DNA from: Thermoplasmata archaeon
Lineage (GTDB): Archaea > Thermoplasmatota > Thermoplasmata > Halarchaeoplasmatales > Halarchaeoplasmataceae
Direction of reading: 5' to 3'
Assembly: GCA_003553085.1 (NCBI GenBank)
Contig: PUPH01000066.1
Span: 568 to 64,567, forward strand
DNA length: 64,000 nucleotides
Shown here: positions 9,282 through 64,000 of the stretch, piece after piece
How positions within the stretch are numbered: the stretch's first letter is position 1
Layout: the number at the start of each line of letters is the position of its first letter
Notes under the pieces: model-generated
The model's input: only the letters and a program-made list of their open reading frames with translations
What the model was told of the DNA's origin: nothing
The model's database searches: none
Position numbers and translations under genes: made by a program

Positions 9282-9417
9282 GCCGAGGTAGCTAAGTCTG
9301 GACTACGGCGCCGGCCTTGAGAGCCGCTATATCGGGGACAGTCCTAACGGGCTGTTCCCGGCCCAAGCAAGCCGGTGGCGGACCCCCGCCACGGGAGTTC
9401 GAATCTCCCCCTCGGCG
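9282..9417 (+). tRNA. tRNA-Ser (anticodon UGA), class II, with a roughly 48-nt intron at the canonical 37/38 position
   Basis: Folded by hand. Acceptor GCCGAGG/CCTCGGC plus discriminator G. Anticodon stem CCGGC(9311-9315)/GCCGG(9371-9375), loop CTTGAG..A, anticodon TGA at 9318-9320. Long variable arm GGCGG-ACCC-CCGCC. T arm GGGAG-TTCGAAT-CTCCC. Intron about 9322-9369, with an internal hairpin. CCA is not encoded. Confidence 0.85.
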
Positions 9418-18257: not shown

Positions 18258-18354
18258 GTCGGGGTAGCTCAGCCTGGTGGAGCGCTAGACTCATAGGGAA
18301 ATCAAGCGTTCCTGGGACATCTAGAGGCCGCGGGTTCAAACCCCGCCCCCGACA
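18258..18354 (+). tRNA. tRNA with anticodon CAU (elongator Met or Ile2) and a roughly 23-nt intron at 37/38
   Basis: Folded by hand. Acceptor GTCGGGG/CCCCGAC plus A. D stem GCTC/GAGC. Anticodon stem CTAGA(18285-18289)/TCTAG(18320-18324), loop CTCATA..A, with CAT at 18292-18294. 5-nt variable loop. T arm GCGGG-TTCAAAC-CCCGC. Intron about 18296-18318. G1-C72 argues against an initiator. Confidence 0.85.
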
Positions 18355-46331: not shown

Positions 46332-46710
46332 CAATAATACATAACCTGTTGGTGTTATATATTTTTCGGATGGGGGGCTTGTGTTATTCTCCAAAAATTT
46401 CGTCAAGATATAAGTACAGTCTTCATAGGTCGTTTGTCGTTCAAAAATTACCTCGCCATACCAAATCCTTTTTCGATTGTCGATCCATCCAAAGAAGATC
46501 ATCAAAAAGAAACTGAGGTACCTATGGAAGCAGGTGAATATCAGAGGTGACGGGCATGCCTACTTAGCATAGAACTTCATTAATAATATATACAAATGGT
46601 CGCATGAAGATATTGGAATTTTGGACTCGCGCTGCCCTATATATTCAATAGTAGCACTTTTTCTTAGTAAATCTTAAATAAAGTATGCAAGTCTCCGATT
46701 AGTGATAAAC

Positions 46711-48591
46711 ATGTCGGGACATTGGGGAAAGTTATTAAGGATAAATCTGGACGATAACGAAGTGAAGACCGAAGAACTTTCGGATAGTTTTCTGAGGAGG
46801 TACGTTGGTGGAGCCGGTTTCACAGGACGGATACTTTACGAAGAAGTAGGGGCAGAGGTGGATCCATTATCACCTGAGAACAAACTGATAATGGCACCCG
46901 GTCTGCTACTTGGACCAAAGGTACCCACCGCTTCAAAAACCGCATTCGGTTTCAAGAGTCCACTCACCGGAGGATACGGTAAGGCCATAGTCGGCGGCTG
47001 GATCGGAGATCGTTTGAAAAAAGCAGGATACGATGTACTAGTGATCGAAGGAAAGGCGAAGGAGCCCTCCGTGGTCGTGATCGAAGATGATGAAGTGAAG
47101 ATCGAAAGCGCCGAAGATCTGTGGGGTATGGATACCCACGAGACCGGGGAAGCTTTGAAGGAAAGATACGGTAAAGTCAAGACCGCTGTCATCGGACCTG
47201 CCGGAGAAAAGCTATCTAAGATCTCGATGATCGAATGTGACGAGAGGCAGGCAGGCCGTGGTGGACCCGGTGCGGTCATGGGCAGTAAAAACCTCAAAGG
47301 CATCGCGATAGAGGGTACAAAGGATTATCCGGTATATGATCAAGAGAAACTGGACGAGTTGAATTCCAAGTTCAGGAAGGAGACCGTTGAACAGGGGAAA
47401 ACAGATATGGACCTAGGTACCGGTTCTGCTATCCATCCTCTGAACGTGGAGATAGGAGCCTTCCCATCAAAGAACTGGGAGGCGGGTTACTTCAAAGAAG
47501 CTTATGAAAAACTCGACGATCCTCAGGAGGGCAGGATAGAACTGGATCCCAACGTTTGGGTGGAGAAGTACAGGGACGGAAGAAGACCTTGCCCGTACTG
47601 TACAAAACCATGCAGCCAATTCTTCGTGGCGGAAGATACGCCCTACGGTGATATTGCCATCGACGGGCCGGAGTACGAAACACAGTATTCTCTGGGAGGC
47701 TGCTGCGGAGTGGAAGACGTTGAGGCGGTCACCAAGGCCAATGAGATCTGTGACAAACTGGGGATCGATACCATATCAGCAGGTGTCACCGTCGCTTGGG
47801 CCATGGAAGCCTACGAAAAAGGACTGTTGGAACTGGATGATATGGAGCTGAACTTCGGGAACGCCCACGCCATGATCGAAGCCGTCAGGCAGATGGGCGA
47901 TAAAGAAGGAGAACTGGGAGAGCTGCTGTTCAACGGTGTTAAAGAAGCCGCGGAAACACTAGGTAAAGGTTCTGAGAAGTTCGCCATACACATCAAAGGT
48001 ATGGAGCCTCCGGGATACGAAGCTAGAGGCATGTTCGGTATGGGTCTTGCACTAGCAGTGGCACCGAGAGGCGCAGACCACCTGACGTCCTGTGAGTATG
48101 CCTTGGACTACGGAGGAAGCTTCTGGCACTTCGAAGACTACGCGAGGGACGACATCGTATCCAAGGGATTCCCGCTGAAGTGCATGGAGGATCTCATGAT
48201 GTTGTACGATATGACCGGGATGTGCAAGTTCTCTAGAGGTATCTTCCTGGATAAGCCCCTTCTGAAGCTCATCAACGCCATAACTGGATGGAACATGTCC
48301 ATAGGAGAACTGTTGACCGCCGGAGAAAGGGGGCACAACCTGGCAAAGGCGTACAACGTTAGAGAAGGTTTCTCACGAGAAGACGATATACTTCCAGATA
48401 GGGTTATGAAGGAAGAGGTACCTTACGGACCCAACAAAGGAAGAAAGATCCCAAGAAGGGAACTGGAGATGGCCCTGGACCGTTACTATACCGCTAGAGG
48501 CTGGGACCTGGAAGGAGTACCCACCAAGGCAAAGCTTCAGGTATTGGACCTGGAAGATGTGGCCGACGAGGTCGGCTCCACCAAACAATAA
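46711..48591 (+). CDS. aor: Aldehyde:ferredoxin oxidoreductase family (tungstopterin enzyme)
   Basis: MSGHWGKLLRINL..YVGGAGFTGRILYEE N-domain. 4Fe-4S ligands RRPCPYCTKPCS. DGPEYETQYSLGGCCGV, DTISAGVTVAWAMEAYEKG, ARGMFGMGLALAVAPRGADH. Length about 626 aa. TATA-like TCTTAAATAAAG lies about 34 nt upstream. Confidence 0.85.
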   Translation: MSGHWGKLLRINLDDNEVKTEELSDSFLRRYVGGAGFTGRILYEEVGAEVDPLSPENKLIMAPGLLLGPKVPTASKTAFGFKSPLTGGYGKAIVGGWIGDRLKKAGYDVLVIEGKAKEPSVVVIEDDEVKIESAEDLWGMDTHETGEALKERYGKVKTAVIGPAGEKLSKISMIECDERQAGRGGPGAVMGSKNLKGIAIEGTKDYPVYDQEKLDELNSKFRKETVEQGKTDMDLGTGSAIHPLNVEIGAFPSKNWEAGYFKEAYEKLDDPQEGRIELDPNVWVEKYRDGRRPCPYCTKPCSQFFVAEDTPYGDIAIDGPEYETQYSLGGCCGVEDVEAVTKANEICDKLGIDTISAGVTVAWAMEAYEKGLLELDDMELNFGNAHAMIEAVRQMGDKEGELGELLFNGVKEAAETLGKGSEKFAIHIKGMEPPGYEARGMFGMGLALAVAPRGADHLTSCEYALDYGGSFWHFEDYARDDIVSKGFPLKCMEDLMMLYDMTGMCKFSRGIFLDKPLLKLINAITGWNMSIGELLTAGERGHNLAKAYNVREGFSREDDILPDRVMKEEVPYGPNKGRKIPRRELEMALDRYYTARGWDLEGVPTKAKLQVLDLEDVADEVGSTKQ

Positions 48592-49706: not shown

Positions 49707-50531
49707 ATGAAGGTACTGCACGTTTGCTCAGAGAAGGCCGTCCCCATGCACAATATAATCGATCTGTATGGAAAAGAGTTGAGTTCACTCGGGATAGAGG
49801 TGGTGAAAGATACAACGGGCAGTATAGATCAGGACTACGACATCATCCACGGACACTATGCCCTAACCAGACCCGTGCTGAAGGCTTTCTTCAAAGCCCG
49901 TGCAAAGAGGATTCCTTTCATCATCCATCATCACGGTAGTGACATAAGGAGGATAGATGACCGGGGTGCGGTACCGATACTACCTCATCACAGAGCTATC
50001 TGTTCAGCTGTCCGCAGAGGTGCCGATATGGCTCTGTTGAGCACTCCAGATCTGCTGGAATGGGTCAACGGGTTCTATATCCCGAACCCTGTGGATCTAG
50101 ATAGATTTAAACCTATGAACATAGAAAAAACACACCGTACACTATTGTTCGGAAGGTTCGCCTCGCGTGAACTGCTACTACCGTTGTTGGATAAAGATAA
50201 GGAGTACGATATGTTGAACTGGGGAGTGGATATGAAACTCCCGAAGAACGTCAGGAAGATACCGTTCCAGCCCAACGAACGATTGCCGGATCTTTTCAAC
50301 CGATATGAGAAGATGATAGGTCCGCTCACCGACCCGGTCTCACTTGGCAGACTAGAGGCCATGGCCTGCGGACTGAAAACTTATACCGACTTCCCGAAAA
50401 AGTACACGGTATTCTATGGTTTCGAGGATCCTGATGAAGTGGATGATCCCAGAAGGTTCGTCCAGAAGTACCACTCACCTAAAGCAGTAGCGGACATCCT
50501 CGTATCCGTGTATAAGGAACTCATCCGGTGA
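49707..50531 (+). CDS. Short GT-B (GT4-like) glycosyltransferase-like protein
   Basis: MKVLHVCS..DIIHGHY..IHHHGSD N-half, and SLGRLEAMACGLK (EX7E-like region) in the C-half. It is shorter (274 aa) than typical GT4 enzymes, so function is uncertain. Confidence 0.5.
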   Translation: MKVLHVCSEKAVPMHNIIDLYGKELSSLGIEVVKDTTGSIDQDYDIIHGHYALTRPVLKAFFKARAKRIPFIIHHHGSDIRRIDDRGAVPILPHHRAICSAVRRGADMALLSTPDLLEWVNGFYIPNPVDLDRFKPMNIEKTHRTLLFGRFASRELLLPLLDKDKEYDMLNWGVDMKLPKNVRKIPFQPNERLPDLFNRYEKMIGPLTDPVSLGRLEAMACGLKTYTDFPKKYTVFYGFEDPDEVDDPRRFVQKYHSPKAVADILVSVYKELIR

Positions 50532-51585
50532 TTATATTGACTATGCGCTCGGATGCTCGTCCATCACCGTAAGGACAGTCTTCCGGTTTCCATCCGTCCT
50601 GTTCGAACCTGTCTATTGCGTTCAAAATATCATCACTGTTTGTACCGACTACTTCTGCAAATCCCGCATCAACGGCCTCCGGACGTTCGGTGGATTCACG
50701 CAGAACGAACACTTTTTTCTTTATGTTGGGCGCAGTGGCTTCCTCCTGGATCCCTCCGGAATCCGTTAGAATATATCGGGCATTCTTCATCAGCATCAAA
50801 AATTCCAGGTAACCTTGAGGTTTCATCAGCTTCATGCCGGTGATATCCTTCAACTTACTGTACAGACCAGTATGTTTGAACATCTTCTCCGCCCGGGGAT
50901 GGATGGGGTACACTTTGGTACCCGGGATGTTCTCGAAGACATCTAGGAACTGTTTCAGAACACTTCTATCATCAACGTTTTCCGCCCGATGGGCGGTTAC
51001 TAGGACGTACTCACCGGGTATGTCCACCCTGGATTTTTCCTGGGCGATCTCCATGTTCTGCATGCAGGCGTCGATAACTGTGTTACCGGTGACGTGTATG
51101 TCTCCCCAGACTTTCTCTCCACGCAGTATCTCCGCACTCTTCTCCGTTGGAGCGAACAGATGATGGGAACAGTGATCTGTCAGTCTGCGATTGTGTTCCT
51201 CAGGCATCCTCAGATCGTAGCTCCTTAAACCTGCCTCGACGTGTCCGACCTTCAGATCCATCTTCACTGCGGCTAAGGCCCCTGCCAATACCGTATTGGT
51301 ATCACCCTGCACCAGCACTATGTCCGAGCCCAGAGTCGCATATGCCTTTTCCAACCCCATCAGAGCTTTACCGGTCTGCTCGGCCTGAGATCCCGAGCCC
51401 ACACCGATGTGTTCTTCCGGTGGAGAAAGGTTCAATTCCTTGAAGAATATCTCCGACACCTCGTGATCATAATGCTGCCCAGTATGGATCACATCGTATG
51501 GGATATCTCGATCTTTAAGTTCTCTTATCAATGGACTCATCTTGATTATTTCAGGTCTGGTACCCAGTACGACTGCCACTCTCAT
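50521..51585 (-). CDS. wecB: UDP-N-acetylglucosamine 2-epimerase (non-hydrolysing, WecB-type)
   Basis: MRVAVVLGTRPEIIKMSPLI..IHTGQHYD..VLVQGDTNT..GHVEAGLRS..PEE.NRR..TDSGGIQEEA. 354 aa. Confidence 0.85.
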   Translation of the reverse strand: MRVAVVLGTRPEIIKMSPLIRELKDRDIPYDVIHTGQHYDHEVSEIFFKELNLSPPEEHIGVGSGSQAEQTGKALMGLEKAYATLGSDIVLVQGDTNTVLAGALAAVKMDLKVGHVEAGLRSYDLRMPEEHNRRLTDHCSHHLFAPTEKSAEILRGEKVWGDIHVTGNTVIDACMQNMEIAQEKSRVDIPGEYVLVTAHRAENVDDRSVLKQFLDVFENIPGTKVYPIHPRAEKMFKHTGLYSKLKDITGMKLMKPQGYLEFLMLMKNARYILTDSGGIQEEATAPNIKKKVFVLRESTERPEAVDAGFAEVVGTNSDDILNAIDRFEQDGWKPEDCPYGDGRASERIVNIITG

Positions 51586-51679: not shown

Positions 51680-52843
51680 ATGAACGAAGTAGTTATCGTC
51701 TCCGCCGTGAGAACGCCCATAGGGAAGTACTTGGGTAGCTTAAAAGATATCAGAGCGCCGAAATTAGGCAGTTTAGTGATCGAAGAGGCCGTTAAAAGAG
51801 CGGGCATCGAAGATGAAGATGTGCAGGAAGTGCTCATGGGATTGGTGATCTCAGCAGGTCTGGGTCAGAACCCTGCCAGACAGGCGGCCCTGGGTGCCGG
51901 AATACCGGTCACATCGGGAGCAACCACCATAAATAAGGTATGCGGCTCAGGTTTGAAGTCCATAATGATGGCTGCGAACTCCATAAAGGCAGGTGAGTAT
52001 GATGTGATCGCCGCCGGTGGTATGGAGAACATGAGCGGTGCACCACATATATTGAGGAAAGCTAGACAGGGATACCGTCTGGGGAACGGAGAACTGGTCG
52101 ATGCCATGGTATTCGACGGACTCTGGGAGATATACAACGATTACCACATGGGAATGACGGGAGAGAGGATAGCAGAGAGGTTCGGTTTAACGCGTGAGGA
52201 GATCGATTCGTTCGCAGTCAGGAGTCACAAACTTGCACACGAAGCCACGGAGAACGGATGGTTCGACCATGAGATAATTCCGGTAGAGCACAGGAGGGGT
52301 ACGTTGGAGGAAGATGAAGGAATAAGAGCGGACAGTACTGTGGAAAAACTGTCCAAGCTGAAACCGGTCTTCAAGAAGGACGGTATGGTCACTGCGGGGA
52401 ACGCTTCCCAGCTGTCTGACGGTGCTTCAGCGGTCGTGGTCATGAGTGGAACTAAAGCCGAATCTTTAGGCCTGGAACCCATGGCACGGATAGTGGATTA
52501 CCACACATCAGGTGTAAAACCAGAGAACATAATGGAGGCCCCGATACCTACCACTAGAGAACTAATGGAGAGGAACGACCTCAGCGTCGATGACATAGAT
52601 CTGATAGAGCACAACGAAGCCTTTGCTTCCGCTTCAGTGGCGGTTCAACAGGAATTCGATATACCTGAGGATAAATTCAACATCCACGGAGGCGCCGTGG
52701 CTCTGGGACATCCCATAGGATGTTCCGGTGCAAGAGTACTGACTACGTTACTGTATGCGATGAAAAGACGTGACGCTCACAGAGGGTTAGCTACACTTTG
52801 TTTGGGCGGAGGCAACGCTGTTTCTATGATAGTGGAGATGTGA
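51680..52843 (+). CDS. Acetyl-CoA C-acetyltransferase (thiolase II, bacterial-type)
   Basis: [14 protein letters not shown], active-site [56 protein letters not shown] upstream. Confidence 0.9.
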
Positions 52844-52848
52844 TACAG

Positions 52849-53691
52849 ATGAAGAAGATAGGAGTATTAGGTGCGGGTACCATGGGCGGCGGGATAGCAC
52901 TGGCAGCTGCCCAGAGCGGTTATCGAGTGTTGATACGAGATATAGAAGAGAGTTTCCTGGAAGGTGGTATGGAAAGGATCGAGAGATCTCTGTCCAAAGC
53001 CGTCTCCAAGGAGAAGATATCCGAGGATGAGAAGGAAGAAGTGCTGGGAAGGTTGGACACCACATTGGAATTGGAAGACATGGAAGGATGTGACATCATC
53101 ATCGAAGCGGTGGTGGAGGACCTTGATATAAAAACAGATGTCTTCAAAAAGCTGGACGATATCTGTGGTCCGGACACGATCTTCGCTTCCAACACCTCGA
53201 CCATACCCATCACCAAGTTGGCCTCTGCAACGGATAGGCCGGAGAAGTTCATAGGTATGCACTTCTTCAACCCCGTGCAGTACATGAAACTGGTGGAAGT
53301 GATCAAGGGTATGCACACATCCGAAGAGACCGTTGAGGATGTGATCGGATTGGCGGAGGATCTCGGCAAGGAACCCGTTTGTATAGAGGATTCACCCGGC
53401 TTCGCCGTCAACAGACTTCTGATACCCATGATCAACGAAGCGGTGTTCGCTCTGCAAGAAGGTGTGGCGGAAAGAGAAGACATAGACAAAGTGATGAAAT
53501 TAGGAGCAAATCACCCCATGGGACCCCTTGCATTGGCGGATCTGATTGGTCTCGATGTGTGCTTGAACATCATGGATGTTCTATACCAAGAGTTCGGCGA
53601 TCCGAAGTACCGCCCCTGTCCACTGCTTAACAAGATGGTGCGTGCGGGACTGCTGGGACGTAAGACAGGAGAGGGTTTCTACGAATATTGA
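52849..53691 (+). CDS. hbd: 3-hydroxybutyryl-CoA / 3-hydroxyacyl-CoA dehydrogenase
   Basis: [17 protein letters not shown] (Rossmann), [58 protein letters not shown]. The start at 52849 sits inside the longer track ORF. Confidence 0.9.
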
Positions 53692-53703
53692 TGGTGATAC
53701 TAC

Positions 53704-54459
53704 ATGATAGAAGTATCAAAAGAGGATCACGTTACAGTGATAAAACTGGATCGTCCACCGGTCAATGCATTGTGCACCGAGATGCTGGATGAGCTGGAGG
53801 ATTCATTGGAGGATCTGTCTGATGCACGATGTGTGGTGATCACAGGCGAAGGAAAGGCCTTCGTCGCAGGTGCCGATATATCAGAGATGAAGGATATGAC
53901 CCCGGAGGAGGCTCATGAATTTTCTCGCAAAGGGCATGGAGTGTTTGGAAAAATACGGGAGTTACCGATACCCGTGATCTCCGCTGTAAACGGATACGCA
54001 CTGGGCGGCGGATTGGAACTGGCAATGACTGCGGATATGATAGTGGCATCAGATCGGGCGCAGTTCGGACAGCCGGAAGTCGGACTGGGTATAATACCCG
54101 GGTTCGGAGGAACACAGATGCTCAGCAGGTTGGTCGGTCCCAGCCATGCAAAAGAGCTGATATTTACTGGTAAAACCATCGACGCCCAGCGTGCACTAGA
54201 GATCGGCCTGGTTAACAAAGTGGTTCCCGGAGAAGAGCTGATGGATACGGTGATGAATATTGCAAAAACAATCTCGTCCAACGGTCCTGCCGCAGTATCC
54301 TTGGCCAAATCATCTATCGATGACGGTTTAGAACTGGTCATGGACGAAGCACTCGAATTGGAAGCATCGAATTTTGAGAGATGCTTCTCTACAGAAGATC
54401 AGAAGGAAGGTATGGAAGCCTTCCTATCCAAAAGGAAGCCCGAATTCAAAGGTGAGTGA
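53704..54459 (+). CDS. crt: Enoyl-CoA hydratase (crotonase family)
   Basis: LDRPPVNAL, VITGEGKAFVAGADI, AVNGYALGGGLELAMTADM, FGQPEVGLGIIPGFGGTQ, EGMEAFLSKRKPEFKG. Confidence 0.9.
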   Translation: MIEVSKEDHVTVIKLDRPPVNALCTEMLDELEDSLEDLSDARCVVITGEGKAFVAGADISEMKDMTPEEAHEFSRKGHGVFGKIRELPIPVISAVNGYALGGGLELAMTADMIVASDRAQFGQPEVGLGIIPGFGGTQMLSRLVGPSHAKELIFTGKTIDAQRALEIGLVNKVVPGEELMDTVMNIAKTISSNGPAAVSLAKSSIDDGLELVMDEALELEASNFERCFSTEDQKEGMEAFLSKRKPEFKGE

Positions 54460-54463
54460 ATCA

Positions 54464-55234
54464 TCACCAGGGTCTTCTTCTTCTCTTTCTCTTTTTTAGA
54501 TAATAGAACACGAAGAATACAGCGGCTGCTATGATGATTATCGGTATCGCGAACCTCCAAGCACTGGGTTCGCCTTCCACATAGAACTCTTTCGTCAGGA
54601 GCTCTTCACCGAATTCTGGTTCTTCGTGCAGCCCGAAGTCCGCTCGTATCTCCAGCCTGTGTTTTCCAGCCTCCAGGTCCTCTTTGATCCACATGAATTC
54701 GACTGTTTTTGTCTCGTTCACTTCGAGTTTGTCTATGGTCTTAGTTTGCACCAATTCCCCGTCGATGAACAAGCCCACCAGCACATCTTCTAGATCATAA
54801 CCAGAGGTGTTCTCCACCTCAACGCTGGTCTCTATCGGTTTGTGGGAAGTCAGTTCGAATGTGGACTCGCGATACCTGGTCTCCTCATCATCAGAACAAT
54901 ACCCGACGATGGTGAATGAGAATGTTCCGGTGGTCGTTGCAGTCACCGTGAACTCGAATCTGTTTGTTTCTGAAGATTCATCCTCTACCGGATCTATATA
55001 CAACTCCAAGGGCACATCGACTATCTCATAGCTCCAATTTGTTGCCTCTTCCGAGAAACTGCCACGGATCTCCACTGCAAAATCCTCGGTCTCCTCTACG
55101 AACACATTATCTGGTCCATCTATATACAGGCTCACTCCGGTCTGGCTCATGGAGCCCTGTACCAAGGGTGTGAATAAGGAAGCCAAGAACAGTAGTGATA
55201 CTGTGATGACGATCATCCTTTTCATCAGTACCAC
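54464..55234 (-). CDS. 256-aa secreted, C-terminally TM-anchored protein with a CARDB-like module, co-transcribed with the giant aglB
   Basis: Signal MIVITVSLLFLASLFTPLVQG. CARDB-like ETSVEVENTSGYDLEDVLVGLFIDGELVQTKTIDKLEVNETKTVEFMW. TM WRFAIPIIIIAAAVFFVFYYL plus KKRKRRRRPW. Its start overlaps the aglB stop by 10 nt. Confidence 0.55.
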   Translation of the reverse strand: MVLMKRMIVITVSLLFLASLFTPLVQGSMSQTGVSLYIDGPDNVFVEETEDFAVEIRGSFSEEATNWSYEIVDVPLELYIDPVEDESSETNRFEFTVTATTTGTFSFTIVGYCSDDEETRYRESTFELTSHKPIETSVEVENTSGYDLEDVLVGLFIDGELVQTKTIDKLEVNETKTVEFMWIKEDLEAGKHRLEIRADFGLHEEPEFGEELLTKEFYVEGEPSAWRFAIPIIIIAAAVFFVFYYLKKRKRRRRPW

Positions 55235-58200
55235 CTCTTCTTTCTGATGTAGTATAGGGCTCCGAGTAATGCCAGTATGATTATCACTACCCAGTAACTG
55301 GTGCGCATCTCGAAGGTATCTTCCTCGAGTAAGATCCTCTCTCCGGTTAGCATGAGAGAATCGGGAGAGGTGAACAGATATGGTTTATCGATCTGGTAGG
55401 ATTCATGATCTTCAACCGTTGAGTCTCCACGGGACGTCGCCCGGACTTCTACAACGGGATCCGGAGTGGGGCTTCTTGTCCGTGCCTCTAGTGTTATCCT
55501 CACCTCTACTTTGCTGTCCTCGCTCACTTCATCGGTGCTGGATTCGATTGACACATCCCAACCCTGTTCTTCCAGTTCTACCATGTTCCGGATCTGAAGA
55601 TCGAACACATCGATACCATTACCAGTATTGTGAACTTGTATCGTATGTATCAGTCGCCCTCCGGAGATGGACTTCCGACTCGTACCGGGGATCAGTTCTA
55701 CACCGTAGTGCTGTTCTACATCGACACCCAATTCACCAGTGGTAGATTCATCGGAATTGAGTGATTCCACCTCGAACTCCATGGGTGGGTGATTGACGAT
55801 GGCGTCATCCGGTACGTGTAGAGTTATGCTTACCGTTGTGGACTCCTTTGGTCCTAATGATATCCTCGAAGGTTCGAACTCCATGTCCCAAACCGCTTTT
55901 GGTGCAGATAACCTGAATTCATCATCGGTGTTACCGGTGTTCGTTATGGTTACATCGTAATGTAAAGTGTCTCCTAGCTGTGCATCCTGGGTGATGATAT
56001 CACCTATGGAGGCACCGTATTCCTTTACCATGTTCAACTCGATATCTTTTTGTCGGTTGTAACTTAGATCGACCCTGTCATCAAACCTATACCGGACCTC
56101 GCCCAATAGATCATCATCTACACTGGTCTCAGTCGTGACTTGGTACAGTCCTTCAGGCAGCAGCAAGGTGTAGCTGCCGTCGTCCATGGAGGGACGCTCG
56201 ATCTCAAGTCTTTCATCGACTCGTACCACGTTCAACGTCGATGGAGTCTTTTCGCCCCTACGGATGATGTCCCCGGTGAGTCTGTATGCGGGTTCAAGAG
56301 TTATGTTGAGCGTATCGTCGGTCTCGCCCATAGCGAAGGATTCCAGTACCGCATAGGGTCTCCTTACACCTTCATATTCTATGTGTATCGAGTATAATCC
56401 TTTTGACAATGGAACCGAGTATGTACCATCTGATGAGGTTTCGACTGATGTAGAAACCGCCTCAGGTGATTGTGCGGTGAACCTGATCTCAACGTCAGGT
56501 ATCAACTCGCCGTCCAACCTGAGTTCACCACTAAGGGTGGGATATACCATCTCTCTCTCCAGGGCTATATGTGGTGAAGTAGAGACCGTGAGATCGTAAA
56601 CATCTGTGTAATGATATCTAACATCCCTCATTATCCCATCGATGGGTTCCGTGGTCTCATGATCAACACTCACTTCGTATTCACCGGGTGCTAGATTAAC
56701 CGTGAACGAGCCGTCCTCGTCAGTTGTTCGCGTTATACTGTAACCGCTATCGAGGTTTTCAAACGTCATATCGATGTTCTCTCTGGGCTCACCTGCATAA
56801 GTGACTAATGGTGAAAATACCGCCGCGGATTCCAGTGTGATATTGTGTTCTACGGGACCCTCTACAACCAATCTTTCACTGGCTGCTAGATCCCCATCTC
56901 TATCCGCTACCCATATGGAGTAAGTACCCAAAGGTAGCTGGATATCATAAGTACCGTTCTCAAGTACGACCTCCTTCTCCCTGGGTCCTTGGATAGATAT
57001 GGTGGCAGGGGTTTCCTGTCCCGCTTCATCTAATATGGAACCGTGTACTCGTACCGCGTGTTCCGCATCAAGATCGATCTCTACCGAACTGTCGGTCGGT
57101 TCGATCTCGACTCTTTTTTCCACGTAGTATCGGGCACCATCGTCTACGGGATGATCAATGATGATATCGTAAACCCCGGGCTGTACATGCATCTCGTATG
57201 TACCATCCACGATGCTGGCTTCGGTATCTACAGCCCCTTCTCCTACCGCTTCGAATTGTACCTCCGAAGTGTCCGGCATCACCGAACCGTTAACGGTCAC
57301 GCTCCCATGGACGTGTACATCCTTTGCCTCCAAAGCGAAGAGGGGTCCGAATTCATCTTCAGGATGGTAGGATATCACTTTTTCGTGGAATCCTTCCTTG
57401 GTGAAGCGTATCTCGACTTCTTCGTTGGGAAGCACTCCTGTGAACCTTCCAGTCGGAGATGAGATCATCCTTATCGAATGACCGTCGGTGATGACTTCGA
57501 TCATGGCGGATACGCCTTCTCCTTCGTCATACTCTTCATCGAAGTCCATATCTCTATATGTTCGTCCCTCGACTGCATGACCAACTGAAGGTGAGATCGT
57601 GAATGTTCTGTCCGAGTCCAATGTGAATGAGGTCCTGTAATAATGAGCAACGGCTAAGTCCATCTTCCAGCCGTAAGCTGTGTAAGAGTCCTTGGGTAAG
57701 TACAGACTAACCCGACCTTCGGCGTTGCTCTTCGTCTCGATTATGGTCCCGTCGGCCGTAGCGAACTCAAGGTTGAATGATTCCACTGGTTCGTCGTCCA
57801 TCTCCACATCTGCCCGGATCCGGTGACCCTTTTCAAACTGGGCAACATAATCCAGATCTTCGGGTACGGTGAGCATGCCGAGATGTACTATCCTCTCTGA
57901 TCCTCTCTGTGAAGTACCGTGAACTGTGTAAACACCTGCGGGCAGTTTCACATGGAATACACCATCTGAATCGGTAACAACAGATTGAGAGTAGGTTCTA
58001 CCCAAGGCACCGGTTAGGGATATCCTTTGACTCGCTAATGTCGAACCGGAACTGTCTTCAGCTACACCGGATACCCAATGTGCATGAGTAACGTTCAGAT
58101 CCCGTTCTTCGGTCATCCCAGCTTCTAATTCAAAGGTCTGTGGACCCTGGGTCAGAGTGTATTCATCCTGTTCAGCTCCTAACTGGTATTCACCTGGTAA

Positions 58201-61200
58201 GATGTGTGAGAAGGTATAGTTACCATCGATATCCAAGGTTTCCGTGAATCGCTCTCCGGTCAGTTTATGTTCTAGATACAGTACTACGTTCTGAATGTCT
58301 GGATCATCAATGGAGGCCATCCCTGTCAACGTTGATGTTTCAACCTCGATATCCCAGGACACCTCTTCTCCAGGCTCGATACTTATATCCTCGGCAGGGG
58401 TTCCTGGTATATCGGATTCTAGTACATATGAACCGGGTATCAACCCAGTGAACGTATAACTACCTTCAGTCTCCACTTCGTATTCATAACCGTAACGTTC
58501 ACTGGTAAGTGTTAACGTGGAAGGTACGAGGGTGTCGTTAGCAGGTGTATAATCTCCGCTATCGTCCTTGTCGATGAAAACATTGGCCGTCAATTCTCCT
58601 GTTTCGACCTCAATATCCTTGTTTATCAAGTAATCCCAACGGCCATCACCTGTGCGATCCGTCCTCCTTCTCATGGATTGATCTCGAGAAACCTCCAGAG
58701 ATTCGATGCCTAGAGGAACAGATTCGGTCTTAGTGAGAGTGTCTTCGTCTTCACCGGTGGATATGACAAGAGTCAATTCACCGGCCGGTGCTTTGATCTC
58801 ATAACGTCCTTCATCGTCTGTATATGTCACCTGGTGAGGAGTACCCATCTCATCAAGGATGGTGACTCGTGCGTCAGGTACTGGTTCGCCTCCTTCGGTG
58901 GCCACGGTTCCAGAAACCAAAGCTCCGTGGAAGTACTCTATGAAGACGACACCTTGACGTAAGTAGCTTCCTGCGCTGAGATCCACCGTTCCTTCCTCCT
59001 GCTCTTGATATCTGATGGCATCTTGTAGAGATACAGCTCTCCAATCTTCAGGATGATCCCTAACCGTTTCCTCGGGGTGTGGATTCCAATAAGCAGTCCT
59101 CGTTGCTATACGGAAATTTTCCATACCCCAAGCGGGTAAGGGTTGTTGTTGGGGGTCGTCTATCCCCGGTATACCCTCATCAGGTGTTGCACCGGTGGGG
59201 TTGGCTCCCGGGTTTGTAGTCGTCATGTCACCCATGGCATGATCTTGGAACATGTTACCCTCTTCGAACTCTATATCCTCCATGTCAAAATCTTCGGGAT
59301 CTATTTCTGGATCCATACCAGGGTCCATACCAGGGTCCATACCAGGGTCCATACCGGGATCAGGCACTTGCTCCGGAACATCTACTTCATGAAGTCCATA
59401 CCCCACGAAGGTTCGGAATAGAGTAGTGTTGAAAAATTCAGGTTTGTGATTCAGTTTGAAATCATGTATCTGGACTTCTGGAGGTATATCGTCAGGATCT
59501 TCGTACTCGTTACCCTCCGCATCTACATATACTATATTATAGAAGTCGATGGGAGTACGTTCGAACCGTTCCTCACCTATACGATACCCTGCTAATTTTG
59601 CAGGTGCATAGAAGATGCCCGTCTGTCTCGCATCGAAGGGGAACAATCTCGTATCGACTGCGATGTATTTTATCAAGGTGTCCGTTTCTTCCGTCAGATC
59701 GTAATATAACTCCACCAGAGTATCCAATTGTTCGTGGGACAGTTCACCCATCAGTTTGGCATACATCACATTTTCAGGGTGGATGTCGTCAGCCCGTGGA
59801 TGGTATCTGTCTGGATTGGCGAGGACTTCGTCCGTGTAATCTTCCCGGTTCAAGAACACATCTTCCACTAGATCTGTCTTTTCCTCCCCTAAGTGGTCTA
59901 CTAGGATGTTGCGTATCTCTCCAGCGATACCGTCATCTTCTCGTACCGGCGGTTCTAGAGTTCTTACTATGAGCAGTGAAAGCAGCTGTGATTCGTTTTG
60001 AGACATCAGCACGTTACCGGCTATGCGGTGACCTGTAAGGAAATTGTCGGCAACACTTGGATGTTGAGCTCTCTGTACGGCTTCGAACCCATAATCCCAC
60101 CAACTGAGGAATCCTGGACGTTTCTCTGGCGGTAGGTGCGAATTCTCCTCCTTCAGCCATTCCCATGCTGCAGGCCAGTAATCGGTCGGTTTATCTAAGC
60201 CGAAGCCGAAGGCCCCTAGGTGCCAATTCTGCGCCTGGTCTTCATCAAAATCCTCGGGCTGAAGTGCACCAGGTATGACCCTATTGATCTGCCTATCGTA
60301 TTGATTCTTTGTTTCGAAGGGGATGCCCGCGTCGAAGCCGTAAAGTACGTTGGGCATCACCAGTAAGAAGGCTATGAACAGAACAACCAGCACATGAGAT
60401 ACTTTGATACTCCGTTTCAAACCCATGAACACATCGCCTCTGAATCCTTTAAGACGACGGTAAATCATATGGAATTGAGCTTTATCCGCTACCAATGCAC
60501 CAACCCAACCTGCCATCAGGGCGAAAGCGGGTGCACCGTTGAAGATGAACCTAGCTGCAGATGTGGCCATGTATATAGCAAAAGCCGCCCAGATAAGGAT
60601 GAACAGGAAATTTGTAGTCCATTTGCCCCATGTATACCATAGACCTAGAGCGATACCCGCGATGGATAAAAAGAATGTAGCTGGACCGAACGAAAGCACT
60701 AGATTGCTGAATTCGGGTGCTTGCGCCTCGGCGATGGTCTCCATGGCCTTGGTCCGTGTGAAGTATCCTGCACCAGTGGTGAGTGCTTCCATGAAACCTG
60801 GTGAAAAATAAACTGCATATATCAATAGTCCAGCAACTAGTACGGCTAGTGCAGAGAAAACAAGTATCCATGGATAATCTCTGGTCACAGTAAGTATGAC
60901 CCCACCGATAAGACCTATGGTGATTATGATCAACGGAACGTCAAACCAGATACCTACGCTTTGTGGCAGATTGGCACCAAGACCGGTTGCAAGGTAGAAC
61001 GGTGCTGCTACGGTTATACCGATGACTAGAGTTACCATCACACAGGCTGTTACACCGAGTGAATCCCGATAACGGAATTTGTCTAGTAATAATTGTATAT
61101 AGTAATAAGCAAGTATTATAACAACAACATAGGCAAAACCCTGCCAGCTCAGTGCGACAGTTGCAACACACATACCTGCCATTGCGGAGTAAAGGATCGA

Positions 61201-61896
61201 CTTTTTATTTTCACGGATAAAAGTTGAGAGACCCTCTCTGATGGACGAACGTTCCGTCCAATCCGTCACCCATTTCCTGTGTTCTGGGATATATTTTAGG
61301 GCCTTCATAAGGAAGTAGAAACCCGTTATGGCAAAGAACAGATATATGGCATCGTGATCCGCGTTACCTATGGGACTTCTCTGCATATGACCTGCGCTTA
61401 TGGCCAGAAGGAAAGCTGCAAACATCCCCGCCTTTTTCCCAAAGGTATCTCTACCGAGTAGATAAACCGGGAATATGGTCAGAGCTCCCCAGAATCCCGT
61501 GGATAGGATCAGTGAATAGTGAACGGACTGGGTGAGATCTCCAACCAGAGGAGCGAATAAACGTCCAGTCAGCGCTACTGTCCAACCATAAAATGGAGGA
61601 CGGGGATTGATACGGCCTATGGGATAATTCAGTAAGTTATCGTGATAAAGATGTCTGCTATTGAATGCGATATATTCTACGATCCTCTCATAATAATACG
61701 CGTCGGAACCACCTGTCAGTAGATACGGGGTTCCAAACTTGGTCGACATTTCAAACGCAAAGTATGTTCGGATGAAGAAAGCTAGAACGAAGATCGCACC
61801 AAGGCAGATCGCAGTACTCCATCTATCCTCGAGCATCGATCCGTCCTGTGAAGCGTCGTCCTGCTTACTTCGTATTTTGGGCATACGTAACCTCAT
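55225..61896 (-). CDS. aglB: Archaeal oligosaccharyltransferase AglB/STT3 (residues about 1-995) fused to about 1230 aa of carboxypeptidase-regulatory-like Ig repeats, CARDB/NEW3-like modules and a C-terminal TM anchor (2223 aa in total)
   Basis: The multi-TM N-domain has an EL1 acidic motif (TGGSDAYYYE) and the catalytic WWDYG motif (PGFLSWWDYGFEAV, residues 599-603). From about residue 996 there are repeated modules of the type GTVATEGGEPVPDARVTILDEMGTPHQVTYTDDEGRYEIKAPAGELTLV. Near the C-terminus, YDVTITNTGNTDDEFRLSA and IQVHNTGNGIDVFDLQIRN. The final TM is YWVVIIILALLGALYYI plus RKKRWY. Confidence 0.85.
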   Translation of the reverse strand: MRLRMPKIRSKQDDASQDGSMLEDRWSTAICLGAIFVLAFFIRTYFAFEMSTKFGTPYLLTGGSDAYYYERIVEYIAFNSRHLYHDNLLNYPIGRINPRPPFYGWTVALTGRLFAPLVGDLTQSVHYSLILSTGFWGALTIFPVYLLGRDTFGKKAGMFAAFLLAISAGHMQRSPIGNADHDAIYLFFAITGFYFLMKALKYIPEHRKWVTDWTERSSIREGLSTFIRENKKSILYSAMAGMCVATVALSWQGFAYVVVIILAYYYIQLLLDKFRYRDSLGVTACVMVTLVIGITVAAPFYLATGLGANLPQSVGIWFDVPLIIITIGLIGGVILTVTRDYPWILVFSALAVLVAGLLIYAVYFSPGFMEALTTGAGYFTRTKAMETIAEAQAPEFSNLVLSFGPATFFLSIAGIALGLWYTWGKWTTNFLFILIWAAFAIYMATSAARFIFNGAPAFALMAGWVGALVADKAQFHMIYRRLKGFRGDVFMGLKRSIKVSHVLVVLFIAFLLVMPNVLYGFDAGIPFETKNQYDRQINRVIPGALQPEDFDEDQAQNWHLGAFGFGLDKPTDYWPAAWEWLKEENSHLPPEKRPGFLSWWDYGFEAVQRAQHPSVADNFLTGHRIAGNVLMSQNESQLLSLLIVRTLEPPVREDDGIAGEIRNILVDHLGEEKTDLVEDVFLNREDYTDEVLANPDRYHPRADDIHPENVMYAKLMGELSHEQLDTLVELYYDLTEETDTLIKYIAVDTRLFPFDARQTGIFYAPAKLAGYRIGEERFERTPIDFYNIVYVDAEGNEYEDPDDIPPEVQIHDFKLNHKPEFFNTTLFRTFVGYGLHEVDVPEQVPDPGMDPGMDPGMDPGMDPEIDPEDFDMEDIEFEEGNMFQDHAMGDMTTTNPGANPTGATPDEGIPGIDDPQQQPLPAWGMENFRIATRTAYWNPHPEETVRDHPEDWRAVSLQDAIRYQEQEEGTVDLSAGSYLRQGVVFIEYFHGALVSGTVATEGGEPVPDARVTILDEMGTPHQVTYTDDEGRYEIKAPAGELTLVISTGEDEDTLTKTESVPLGIESLEVSRDQSMRRRTDRTGDGRWDYLINKDIEVETGELTANVFIDKDDSGDYTPANDTLVPSTLTLTSERYGYEYEVETEGSYTFTGLIPGSYVLESDIPGTPAEDISIEPGEEVSWDIEVETSTLTGMASIDDPDIQNVVLYLEHKLTGERFTETLDIDGNYTFSHILPGEYQLGAEQDEYTLTQGPQTFELEAGMTEERDLNVTHAHWVSGVAEDSSGSTLASQRISLTGALGRTYSQSVVTDSDGVFHVKLPAGVYTVHGTSQRGSERIVHLGMLTVPEDLDYVAQFEKGHRIRADVEMDDEPVESFNLEFATADGTIIETKSNAEGRVSLYLPKDSYTAYGWKMDLAVAHYYRTSFTLDSDRTFTISPSVGHAVEGRTYRDMDFDEEYDEGEGVSAMIEVITDGHSIRMISSPTGRFTGVLPNEEVEIRFTKEGFHEKVISYHPEDEFGPLFALEAKDVHVHGSVTVNGSVMPDTSEVQFEAVGEGAVDTEASIVDGTYEMHVQPGVYDIIIDHPVDDGARYYVEKRVEIEPTDSSVEIDLDAEHAVRVHGSILDEAGQETPATISIQGPREKEVVLENGTYDIQLPLGTYSIWVADRDGDLAASERLVVEGPVEHNITLESAAVFSPLVTYAGEPRENIDMTFENLDSGYSITRTTDEDGSFTVNLAPGEYEVSVDHETTEPIDGIMRDVRYHYTDVYDLTVSTSPHIALEREMVYPTLSGELRLDGELIPDVEIRFTAQSPEAVSTSVETSSDGTYSVPLSKGLYSIHIEYEGVRRPYAVLESFAMGETDDTLNITLEPAYRLTGDIIRRGEKTPSTLNVVRVDERLEIERPSMDDGSYTLLLPEGLYQVTTETSVDDDLLGEVRYRFDDRVDLSYNRQKDIELNMVKEYGASIGDIITQDAQLGDTLHYDVTITNTGNTDDEFRLSAPKAVWDMEFEPSRISLGPKESTTVSITLHVPDDAIVNHPPMEFEVESLNSDESTTGELGVDVEQHYGVELIPGTSRKSISGGRLIHTIQVHNTGNGIDVFDLQIRNMVELEEQGWDVSIESSTDEVSEDSKVEVRITLEARTRSPTPDPVVEVRATSRGDSTVEDHESYQIDKPYLFTSPDSLMLTGERILLEEDTFEMRTSYWVVIIILALLGALYYIRKKRWY
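59309..59358 (-). repeat. 12-bp tandem repeat x4 inside aglB, encoding (DPGM)4
   Basis: Plus strand: GGATCCATACCA GGGTCCATACCA GGGTCCATACCA GGGTCCATACCG. Translated on the minus strand this gives PDPGMDPGMDPGMDPGMDPEIDPEDFD. Confidence 0.85.
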
Positions 61897-61989
61897 TAGT
61901 ATTCACCTGAATCAACGTGTGGAACAATCTCATGAAGCCTCTACTATTTATAGATTATTCATGCCCGTGTAGGAGCCCAGATGGAAAAT

Positions 61990-63606: not shown

Positions 63607-63761
63607 GTGAGCATTTAGTGGGTAAAATTTTCTCCATACTTCGATCTGATAGATATCTGTAAAAATATATCCATACGCAGACCTAGTACCAAATGATCGA
63701 AAGATGTGAAAAAGAAAAAGATTTCCACACGCAGACCTGTCTGATGACCAATCCGAAATGT

Positions 63762-64000
63762 AAACTGCAATCCGGACGCTTAGTAACCGTGGGCTGAATA
63801 CGTCGCCGAAGCTTCGTACTTACACCCCGGTTCTATCAAACCCGTCTTCCACGGGAGTCCTCAGGTACCTCGTTTCAGGAAAAGTTTCAGGCTTAGATGC
63901 TTTCAGCCTTTATCTTCATACAGCGTGGCTACCCAGCGTGTGCCCTACCGGACAACTGGTAAACTAGTGGCTGCGAAACCCTGTTCCTCTCGTACTAAGG
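63762..64000 (-). rRNA. 23S rRNA, 3'-terminal about 240 nt (the gene continues right of the window). The 3' boundary is approximate
   Basis: The reverse complement contains the sarcin-ricin loop CCTTAGTACGAGAGGAACAGGG (window end), GCTGAAAGCATCTAAGC (63891-63907), and a 3' region alignable by eye to the E. coli 23S end (GAAGACGGGTTTGATAGAACCGGGGTGTAAG..ACGGTTACTAAGCGTCCGG). Confidence 0.85.

Follow-up and report, generated by a model that had tools for sequence, protein, structure and literature searches.

Archaeal AglB is the textbook example of a single-subunit oligosaccharyltransferase (OST). Characterised AglB proteins are about 600-1050 aa long, with a C-terminal domain that is extracellular in the solved structures, and to our knowledge all structural and genetic work on AglB concerns enzymes of this size from other lineages. 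Here we describe a gene of a Thermoplasmata archaeon that codes for a far longer AglB (the giant), together with the small gene directly downstream of it (the partner). Both lie on the minus strand of contig PUPH01000066.1 (GenBank assembly GCA_003553085.1), in the 64,000-nt stretch from position 568 to 64,567 that was analysed as a whole; this stretch is called the window, and all coordinates are given within it.

Ost1 and TRAP, with which the partner is compared below, have a signal peptide, one or two lumenal beta-sandwich domains, a single transmembrane (TM) helix and a short basic tail. Characterised AglBs are regarded as single-subunit enzymes (PMC2952790). The design of TRAP and translocon accessory proteins has been described (PMC11186639), as has NOMO, which sits at the translocon and consists of 12 prealbumin-like domains forming a rod of ~27 nm, followed by a C-terminal TM helix (PMC8327139, PMC11186639). 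The length of NOMO sets the intermembrane distance of the endoplasmic reticulum (ER), and the insertion of extra immunoglobulin (Ig) folds widens the ER lumen (PMC8327139, PMC11186639).

The giant resembles AglB, STT3 and PglB (GT-C fold, CAZy GT66; 3WAJ/5GMY, 3VU0/3VGP) in its 13-TM domain, the Asp of external loop (EL) 1, the D-x-D/H and TIXE (EL5) motifs, WWDYG and the extracellular C-terminal core. It differs from the characterised AglBs in having ~1100-1200 extra residues, which make up 10-11 added beta-sandwiches and two CARDB-like modules, a second TM anchor, an obligately linked partner gene and a non-canonical residue pattern at the DK/MI position. What appears new is the phylum-wide fused arm and obligate partner on a known enzyme, for which no published description was found; the sequence itself is abundant in databases and not unique to the window. 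We favour, at slightly better than even confidence, the reading that this gene encodes the N-oligosaccharyltransferase AglB of the organism in the form standard for Thermoplasmatota, acting in a complex with the partner and carrying the arm as a scaffold.

The giant AglB gene and its relatives

The giant is encoded by an ATG-initiated open reading frame (ORF), and a second minus-strand ORF adjoins it downstream and ends at 54464. The original prediction had described an AglB running into an array of beta-sandwiches, two CARDB-like modules, an end TM helix and a basic tail. This anatomy turned out to be right in every structural detail, down to the exact position of WWDYG, and the single-ORF fusion of a catalytically intact AglB to a long beta-sandwich ectodomain with a second TM anchor is genuine. 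The parts of the gene are as follows:

55225..61896, minus strand: whole giant ORF, 2223 aa (AglB, arm and second anchor), with full-length homologues at 30-68% identity and an unbroken frame in 72 related loci
60322..61896, minus strand: AglB/STT3 multi-TM (GT-C) domain, residues 1-525, containing D65, D180-H181-D182, T387-I-A-E390 and R449 (Pfam STT3; alignment to 3WAJ)
58927..60321, minus strand: extracellular AglB core and peripheral domain, residues 526-990 (alignment to 3VU0 and 3VGP; TIGR04154 match)
59182..59361, minus strand: acidic low-complexity insert, residues 846-905, lineage-specific (95% gaps in aligned relatives)
58561..58926, minus strand: module R1 and its linker, residues 991-1112, the best-conserved beta-sandwich (identity 0.42 and 0.39)
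56029..58560, minus strand: modules R2-R11, residues 1113-1956, ten transthyretin/CarboxypepD_reg-like beta-sandwiches, some with SdrD_B-type acidic loops (Pfam, iterative profile search)
55387..56028, minus strand: two CARDB/FixG_C/DUF11-like modules, residues ~1957-2170 (Pfam FixG_C, NCBIfam choice_anch_T)
55228..55386, minus strand: stalk, second TM helix (residues 2196-2219, nt 55240-55311) and basic cytoplasmic tail RKKRWY (hydropathy)

In the AglB part, Pfam matched STT3 at residues 63-508 (51.5 bits, cut-off 24.5) and gave a weak AglB_core-like match around residues 588-637. Residues 59-519 align with residues 41-488 of A. fulgidus AglB-L (AfAglB-L, 3WAJ; phmmer against the PDB), and the region of the WWDYG core aligns with the C-terminal domains of AfAglB-S1 and AfAglB-S2 (3VU0, 3VGP). 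In these alignments G62-G63-S64-D65 falls on GGND (D47) of AfAglB-L, N178-A-D180-H181-D182 on D161/H163, T387-I388-A-E390 on TIAE (E360), and R449 on R426. The catalytic and metal-binding residues, and R449 with them, are invariant or nearly so in a family alignment of 20 sequences with 30-67% identity: D65, H181, D182, the TIAE motif and WWDYG (residues 599-603, nt 60088-60102) do not vary, and D180 is kept in at least 90% of the sequences. Conservation along the giant is highest in the TM domain and the extracellular core (mean pairwise identity 0.46-0.50), with values of 0.44-0.50 for the core and peripheral domain of residues 526-990. These alignments point, with high confidence, to the AglB part being a functional OST.

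An assembly error or a frameshift joining two genes could also create such an ORF, and short-read assemblies do break inside this gene, at a perfect tandem repeat of 12 nt x 3.7 (59312-59355; Tandem Repeats Finder) that encodes GMDP units within the acidic insert. At least three independent assemblies of the same organism (JGI 3300000557, SRR490150 and SRR13089369) have contigs that all end in this repeat. They are 100% identical to the window from ~47.7 kb, beyond the stop codon of the giant, up to 59341 or 59355, and they cover residues ~848-2223. The break therefore lies upstream of the transition from AglB to the arm, which is included in all three, and no stop or frameshift splits the two, a continuity that the original prediction had proposed to verify in an independent assembly. 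The copy number of the GMDP repeat in the window is uncertain, because three independent short-read assemblies all terminate there; since the repeat unit is four codons, an error in copy number cannot break the frame. One unbroken frame of 2085-2343 codons was found in all 72 related loci not cut by a contig end (those with enough sequence among the best 80 loci of a scan of GTDB species genomes), and more than 100 protein clusters have the same continuous architecture. Frameshift or misassembly is ruled out by the identity of the independent assemblies, the sole break point being an in-frame 12-nt repeat. On present data the chance that the ORF is an artefact appears negligible, and this explanation can be taken as excluded for practical purposes.

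A search of 5.8 billion proteins gave 406 matches. The best 120 of these 406 clusters came from Thermoplasmata, Thermoplasmatota, Ca. Saliniplasma and Methanomassiliicoccales; they were 2028-2384 aa long, apart from three partial sequences, and most aligned over 94-100% of the query with 30-63% identity. When one genome per GTDB species was scanned, at least 580 genomes had a relative; among the best 80 loci are those of Methanomassiliicoccales (RumEn M1, Methanomassiliicoccus sp.), DHVE2, Ca. Halarchaeoplasma, Natronoplasma and Saliniplasma. Fetched proteins with WWDYG had a median length of 2170 aa (5th-95th percentile 1728-2476). As judged from these sequences, ~2150-2250 aa is the normal length of AglB across Thermoplasmatota and the giant is not an outlier; the fusion is real and old. 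The original prediction had presented the giant as exceptional, a view that does not hold within the clade given these counts and the giant size of all the best 120 clusters. It had also left room for long AglB fusions being already common and described in the clade. Common they are, but neither the architecture nor the partner was found described in the literature, where a passing mention in Nikolayev et al. 2020 (Mol Phylogenet Evol) is possible, and a review from 2024 does not mention the giant form (PMC11407970).

Public names for the relatives are inconsistent, and automated surveys can therefore miss the OST of the phylum: 'carboxypeptidase regulatory-like domain-containing protein', 'STT3 domain-containing protein', 'glycosyltransferase family 39 protein', 'hypothetical protein' and, at JGI, 'dolichyl-diphosphooligosaccharide--protein glycosyltransferase' are all in use. 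Metagenomes of hypersaline soda-lake sediment are the source of both the closest relatives and the identical contigs (JGI SL_5KL/8KL_010_SED; the CSSed, B1Sed10 and HAP series of metagenome-assembled genomes). The ectodomain is acidic (isoelectric point, pI, ~4.2), which fits a halophilic Thermoplasmata archaeon, and contains no cysteines.

The beta-sandwich arm

From residue 994 on, Pfam matched CarboxypepD_reg (155 bits), and SdrD_B, NOMO_5th and FixG_C also gave matches. An iterative profile search seeded with residues 991-1078 placed 11 CarboxypepD_reg/transthyretin-like modules between residues 991 and 1956:

Modules R1-R6: residues 991-1078, 1113-1184, 1188-1273, 1272-1352, 1357-1439 and 1454-1513
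Modules R7-R11: residues 1527-1616, 1614-1693, 1692-1783, 1786-1874 and 1871-1956

The domain parsing proposed in the original prediction thus yielded 11 CarboxypepD_reg-like modules and, after them, two CARDB-like ones. The latter each carry an N-x-G-N (NTGN) motif that is invariant in the 20-sequence alignment (N1986/G1988/N1989 and N2090/G2092/N2093), and the NCBIfam family choice-of-anchor T (NF041740) was a near miss at residues 2056-2166 (66.7 bits, cut-off 70). At the very end of the protein, the tail is kept as KKRW[IFLY] among related proteins.

The number of modules in the arm does not vary. No module has a gap fraction above 0.03, in an alignment whose sequences share only 23-30% identity in this region; 6-12 of the 13 modules find their best match at the same position in homologues of ~30% identity, and paralogue scores among modules within the giant are low. 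The variable repeat number or repeat turnover expected of S-layer and adhesin arrays was not seen among the relatives, and the fixed module number speaks against a variable array of the adhesin or S-layer kind. AlphaFold2, run on 48 sequences, models residues 985-2184 as an all-beta structure with a mean predicted local distance difference test (pLDDT) score of 89.

The closest solved relative of the arm was human NOMO2 (BOS complex, 9C7V), the best PDB match of both the full-length profile (E 6e-25) and the arm-only profile (E 3.7e-33). Pfam NOMO_5th scored 38 bits (cut-off 27), and NOMO_3rd and NOMO1-like_9th matched as well. Only family profiles reach NOMO: a single-sequence phmmer search of the arm against the PDB returned nothing, NOMO included. 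In design, NOMO is the closest counterpart of the arm. Its ~12 transthyretin-like modules are followed by one C-terminal TM helix and a short cytosolic tail, a pattern that the 11 + 2 modules and TM helix of the giant share. Like the arm, it belongs to the membrane in which translocon and OST reside and lies on the side facing away from the cytoplasm. The fixed module number of the arm fits a spacer or ruler role such as that of NOMO (PMC8327139). In contrast to NOMO, the arm is fused to AglB instead of forming a stand-alone type-I protein with its own signal peptide, its last two modules are CARDB-like, and the host lineage is Thermoplasmatota and not the Asgard relatives of eukaryotes. With a spacer protein as its best solved relative and no S-layer protein among its matches, with a fixed module number and positional orthology and with 7 sequons in 1205 aa, the arm fits poorly with the label 'S-layer/adhesin-like' that the original prediction had given it.

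A related but distinct explanation, which we consider unlikely, is that the arm is itself the major envelope coat (S-layer-like or glycocalyx), fused to AglB for glycosylation in cis and for tethering. Many Thermoplasmatota are without a recognised S-layer. The ectodomain is indeed large, acidic and all-beta, but the number and order of its modules are strictly fixed across the phylum, unlike those of typical coat or adhesin arrays, and a fusion stoichiometric with an enzyme would be an odd route to an abundant lattice protein. A heavily glycosylated coat was rejected on the same sequon count, which shows no enrichment. Weak NCBIfam matches to a PACE-CTERM putative S-layer protein and to choice-of-anchor T speak for a coat, while Foldseek and family profiles run against the PDB matched no solved S-layer protein. 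A PGF-CTERM-like archaeosortase signal, typical of archaeal surface glycoproteins, also points to a coat; this C-terminus (PGFE, a hydrophobic stretch and a basic tail) is found in 7 of 185 family members (P0236, P0265, P0273, P0279, P0285, P0312 and P0344), each of them a more remote relative with a length of 2234-2675 aa, and suggests that in some lineages archaeosortase swaps the second anchor for a lipid anchor. The tail of the window protein has no PGF motif. The giant is like archaeal PGF-CTERM surface glycoproteins (archaeosortase A substrates) in its C-terminal hydrophobic helix and basic tail, and differs from them in its fixed array length and in starting with an enzyme instead of a signal peptide. 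Among cultured members, the STT3 subunit of Picrophilus torridus was seen in an experimental secretome, in line with a coat (PMC8345856), whereas electron microscopy shows no S-layer on Cuniculiplasma, which does have AglB (PMC5155288).

The P. torridus protein (PTO0786, from a cultured member of the Thermoplasmatales; PMC8345856) is unexpected in a secretome if the enzyme is purely integral, and could mean a large or shed ectodomain. Its peptides also speak for a polyprotein: once in the membrane, the protein would be cut to separate the arm from AglB, and the fusion would do no more than secure co-expression and co-localisation of AglB with a separate surface protein. In the lineage of the window, the acidic low-complexity linker of residues 846-905 precedes the junction and could be taken as a cleavage region, but 95% of aligned relatives lack it. 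Moreover, the junction (residues 906-990, identity 0.50) is as conserved as the catalytic core, and R1 (0.42) and its linker (0.39) stand above R2-R11 (0.23-0.30); such conservation of the junction and R1 suggests a folded interface and not a cleavable linker. Since the junction, R1 and its linker are better conserved and the TIGR04154 match reaches residue 1035, the true add-on probably begins near residue 1113, and R1 may still belong to the canonical AglB peripheral region. A search of 1.84 billion representatives with the arm gave 108 matches at E<=1e-30. The best 150 arm matches listed were mostly full-length fusions of ~2000-2700 aa, with many others shorter; all eight shorter ones that were inspected begin inside the junction or R1 and none has its own signal peptide, and for this reason they look like fragments. 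There was thus no sign of an unfused arm among the best 150 matches listed (eight shorter ones inspected), and a free-standing arm protein elsewhere, as a Rosetta-stone test would look for, was discarded. Taken together, we judge a cleaved polyprotein to be improbable.

The partner gene and the neighbourhood

The features of the two-gene unit outside the giant itself, and the ribosome-binding site of the partner, are:

61945..61952, minus strand: TATA-box-like element TATAAATA, candidate promoter of the two-gene unit, ~50 nt 5' of the ATG (putative, from sequence reading)
61903..61907, minus strand: Shine-Dalgarno-like GGTGA, 6 nt 5' of the ATG of the giant ORF (sequence reading)
55231..55236, minus strand: Shine-Dalgarno-like AGGTGG serving the partner, in the last codons of the giant, AGG-TGG (Arg-Trp), with the same arrangement in related loci
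54464..55225, minus strand: partner gene, 253 aa, with a signal peptide, two beta-sandwiches (the second CARDB), a TM helix and the tail KKRKRRRRPW

The original prediction had assigned 256 aa and an overlap of 10 nt to the downstream gene. The gene is real and has the CARDB domain and TM anchor expected, but the start that these figures imply, GTG at 55234, is less likely: gene callers and orthologues favour ATG at 55225, which most probably is the start and which overlaps the stop codon of the giant by 1 nt as TGATG. The CARDB domain (PF07705) covers residues 128-199 (36 bits, cut-off 22.7), the profile of the partner matches the archaeal CARDB structures 3IDU and 2KL6, and an AlphaFold2 model has a pLDDT of 88.5. 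All database relatives of the partner are labelled as hypothetical or CARDB proteins.

A partner homologue lies directly downstream of the giant in 72 of 72 loci, as determined by profile search of the translated downstream DNA. The homologues are 236-272 aa long and start between -4 and +3 nt from the stop codon of the giant in 59 of 60 loci. No other neighbour is conserved throughout the family; the runner-up among gene clusters is present in 32 of the 72 loci. This synteny and the conserved translational coupling make the case for a functional pair, already suggested in the original prediction, far stronger than it was there. They suggest that the giant and the partner are co-transcribed and translationally coupled, and a TATA-like box and a Shine-Dalgarno sequence of its own are predicted upstream of the pair.

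The conserved Arg-Trp of the giant's tail is encoded by the same AGGTGG that is the partner's Shine-Dalgarno sequence, so that these six nucleotides are constrained both as part of the protein tail and as a ribosome-binding site. The tail of the partner likewise ends in RRPW, though no gene follows it. The idea that the partner is paralogous to the CARDB modules at the C-terminus of the giant was rejected, as similarity in BLASTP is limited to the TM helix and tail (E 6e-4).

In its signal peptide, beta-sandwich domains, single TM helix and short basic tail the partner is like Ost1/ribophorin I and TRAP alpha/beta. This is an analogy alone, with no match to these proteins in sequence or fold: searches with the model and the profile gave generic tandem-Ig matches and none to OST accessory subunits.

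The pair is bounded on one side by a Tyr/Trp-tRNA synthetase gene and on the other by a convergent cluster of thiolase, 3-hydroxyacyl-CoA dehydrogenase and enoyl-CoA hydratase genes (51680-54459, plus strand), beta-oxidation-like or of butyrate type. Beyond this cluster, the original prediction had noted a WecB epimerase and a glycosyltransferase-like gene. WecB is present (50521-51585; Epimerase_2, E 1e-101), but the glycosyltransferase-like gene (49707-50531) stayed below threshold, at 20 bits against 29.7. The beta-oxidation-like cluster parts both from the pair and their neighbourhood is not conserved in related loci, and a glycosylation gene cluster around the giant was rejected on these grounds. 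An aldehyde:ferredoxin oxidoreductase gene lies at 46702-48591. Elsewhere in the window, Rfam tRNA matches at 9282-9417 and 18258-18354 (plus strand) are 136 and 97 nt long; as both far exceed 76 nt, they suggest intron-containing archaeal tRNAs. ARAGORN reports only the second (18258-18354), with the anticodon undetermined. The 3' end of an archaeal 23S rRNA gene (63760-64000, minus strand) runs off the end of the window.

Proposed complex and its significance

The favoured reading, a giant AglB in complex with its partner and bearing a scaffold arm of fixed geometry rather than a variable adhesin, we hold to be moderately probable. The 13-TM GT-C catalytic domain and the extracellular WWDYG core run on in one polypeptide into the 11 transthyretin-like and two CARDB-like modules, and the chain returns to the membrane through the second TM helix, with its basic tail on the cytoplasmic side. 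Both proteins have basic tails, in keeping with the positive-inside rule, and the features are consistent with an ectodomain outside and both tails inside. Held by an anchor at either end, the arm would stand on the outside of the membrane as an arch or rod of fixed shape, and could serve, like NOMO, as a structural spacer or scaffold that holds the catalytic site at a defined place in the envelope and/or presents nascent exported proteins. The giant and its partner would form a stoichiometric complex, and the OST would be a two-protein machine instead of a single subunit.

Several observations weigh against this reading. The complex is proposed on the grounds of synteny and coupling. The modules of the arm are well defined in the AlphaFold2 model but their mutual arrangement is not (predicted TM-score 0.46), and Foldseek of the arm against the PDB gave only generic multi-beta-sandwich matches with TM-scores of at most 0.11 (alpha-2-macroglobulins, HYDIN, BaTIE and pilins). 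Modules R2-R4 align to three segments of NOMO (131-247, 344-509 and 884-1080), so that the relation is at the domain level and non-collinear, and the NOMO match may reflect a shared domain type alone. In the enzyme itself, the Ser/Thr-pocket position reads I625-A-G-N-V-L-M-S (family consensus x-A-G-N-F-L-M), aligned to DAAKFFTA of AfAglB-S2, a pattern that is neither canonical DK (DxxKxxxM/I) nor MI (MxxIxxxI/V/W). The NCBIfam family TIGR04154 (archaeo_STT3, the archaeosortase-A-associated AglB subfamily) matched residues 30-1035 with 237.7 bits, below its cut-off of 450.

The last two points also speak for an alternative in which the AglB part is a degenerate pseudo-enzyme, a mere membrane anchor, with another OST carrying out glycosylation. 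The invariance or near-invariance of D65, D180/H181/D182, TIAE390 and WWDYG at ~30% identity, in a TM domain and core that are the most conserved parts of the protein, makes this very improbable.

A bolder extension of the favoured reading is that the OST is an obligate two-protein envelope machine whose NOMO-like arm acts as a molecular ruler that sets or senses the width of the extracellular or pseudo-periplasmic space. We regard this as speculative and rather unlikely. If it were true, the second anchor could reach the outer membrane in double-membraned members such as Methanomassiliicoccus, and there would be a prokaryotic precedent for the coupling of STT3 to Ig-array and single-pass accessory proteins (NOMO/BOS, TRAP and ribophorins).

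A whole phylum, with gut methanogens (Methanomassiliicoccales), deep-sea DHVE2 and Thermoplasmata that are halophilic or live in soda lakes among its members, uses an AglB of ~2200 aa with a fixed arm of 13 modules, a second anchor and an invariably coupled partner. This raises the question of an accessory subunit in an archaeal OST, and makes the single-subunit status of archaeal OSTs directly testable. It also raises the questions of what purpose the arm may serve in organisms that often have no S-layer, and of whether a NOMO-like spacer joined to STT3 bears on the origin of OST accessory proteins.

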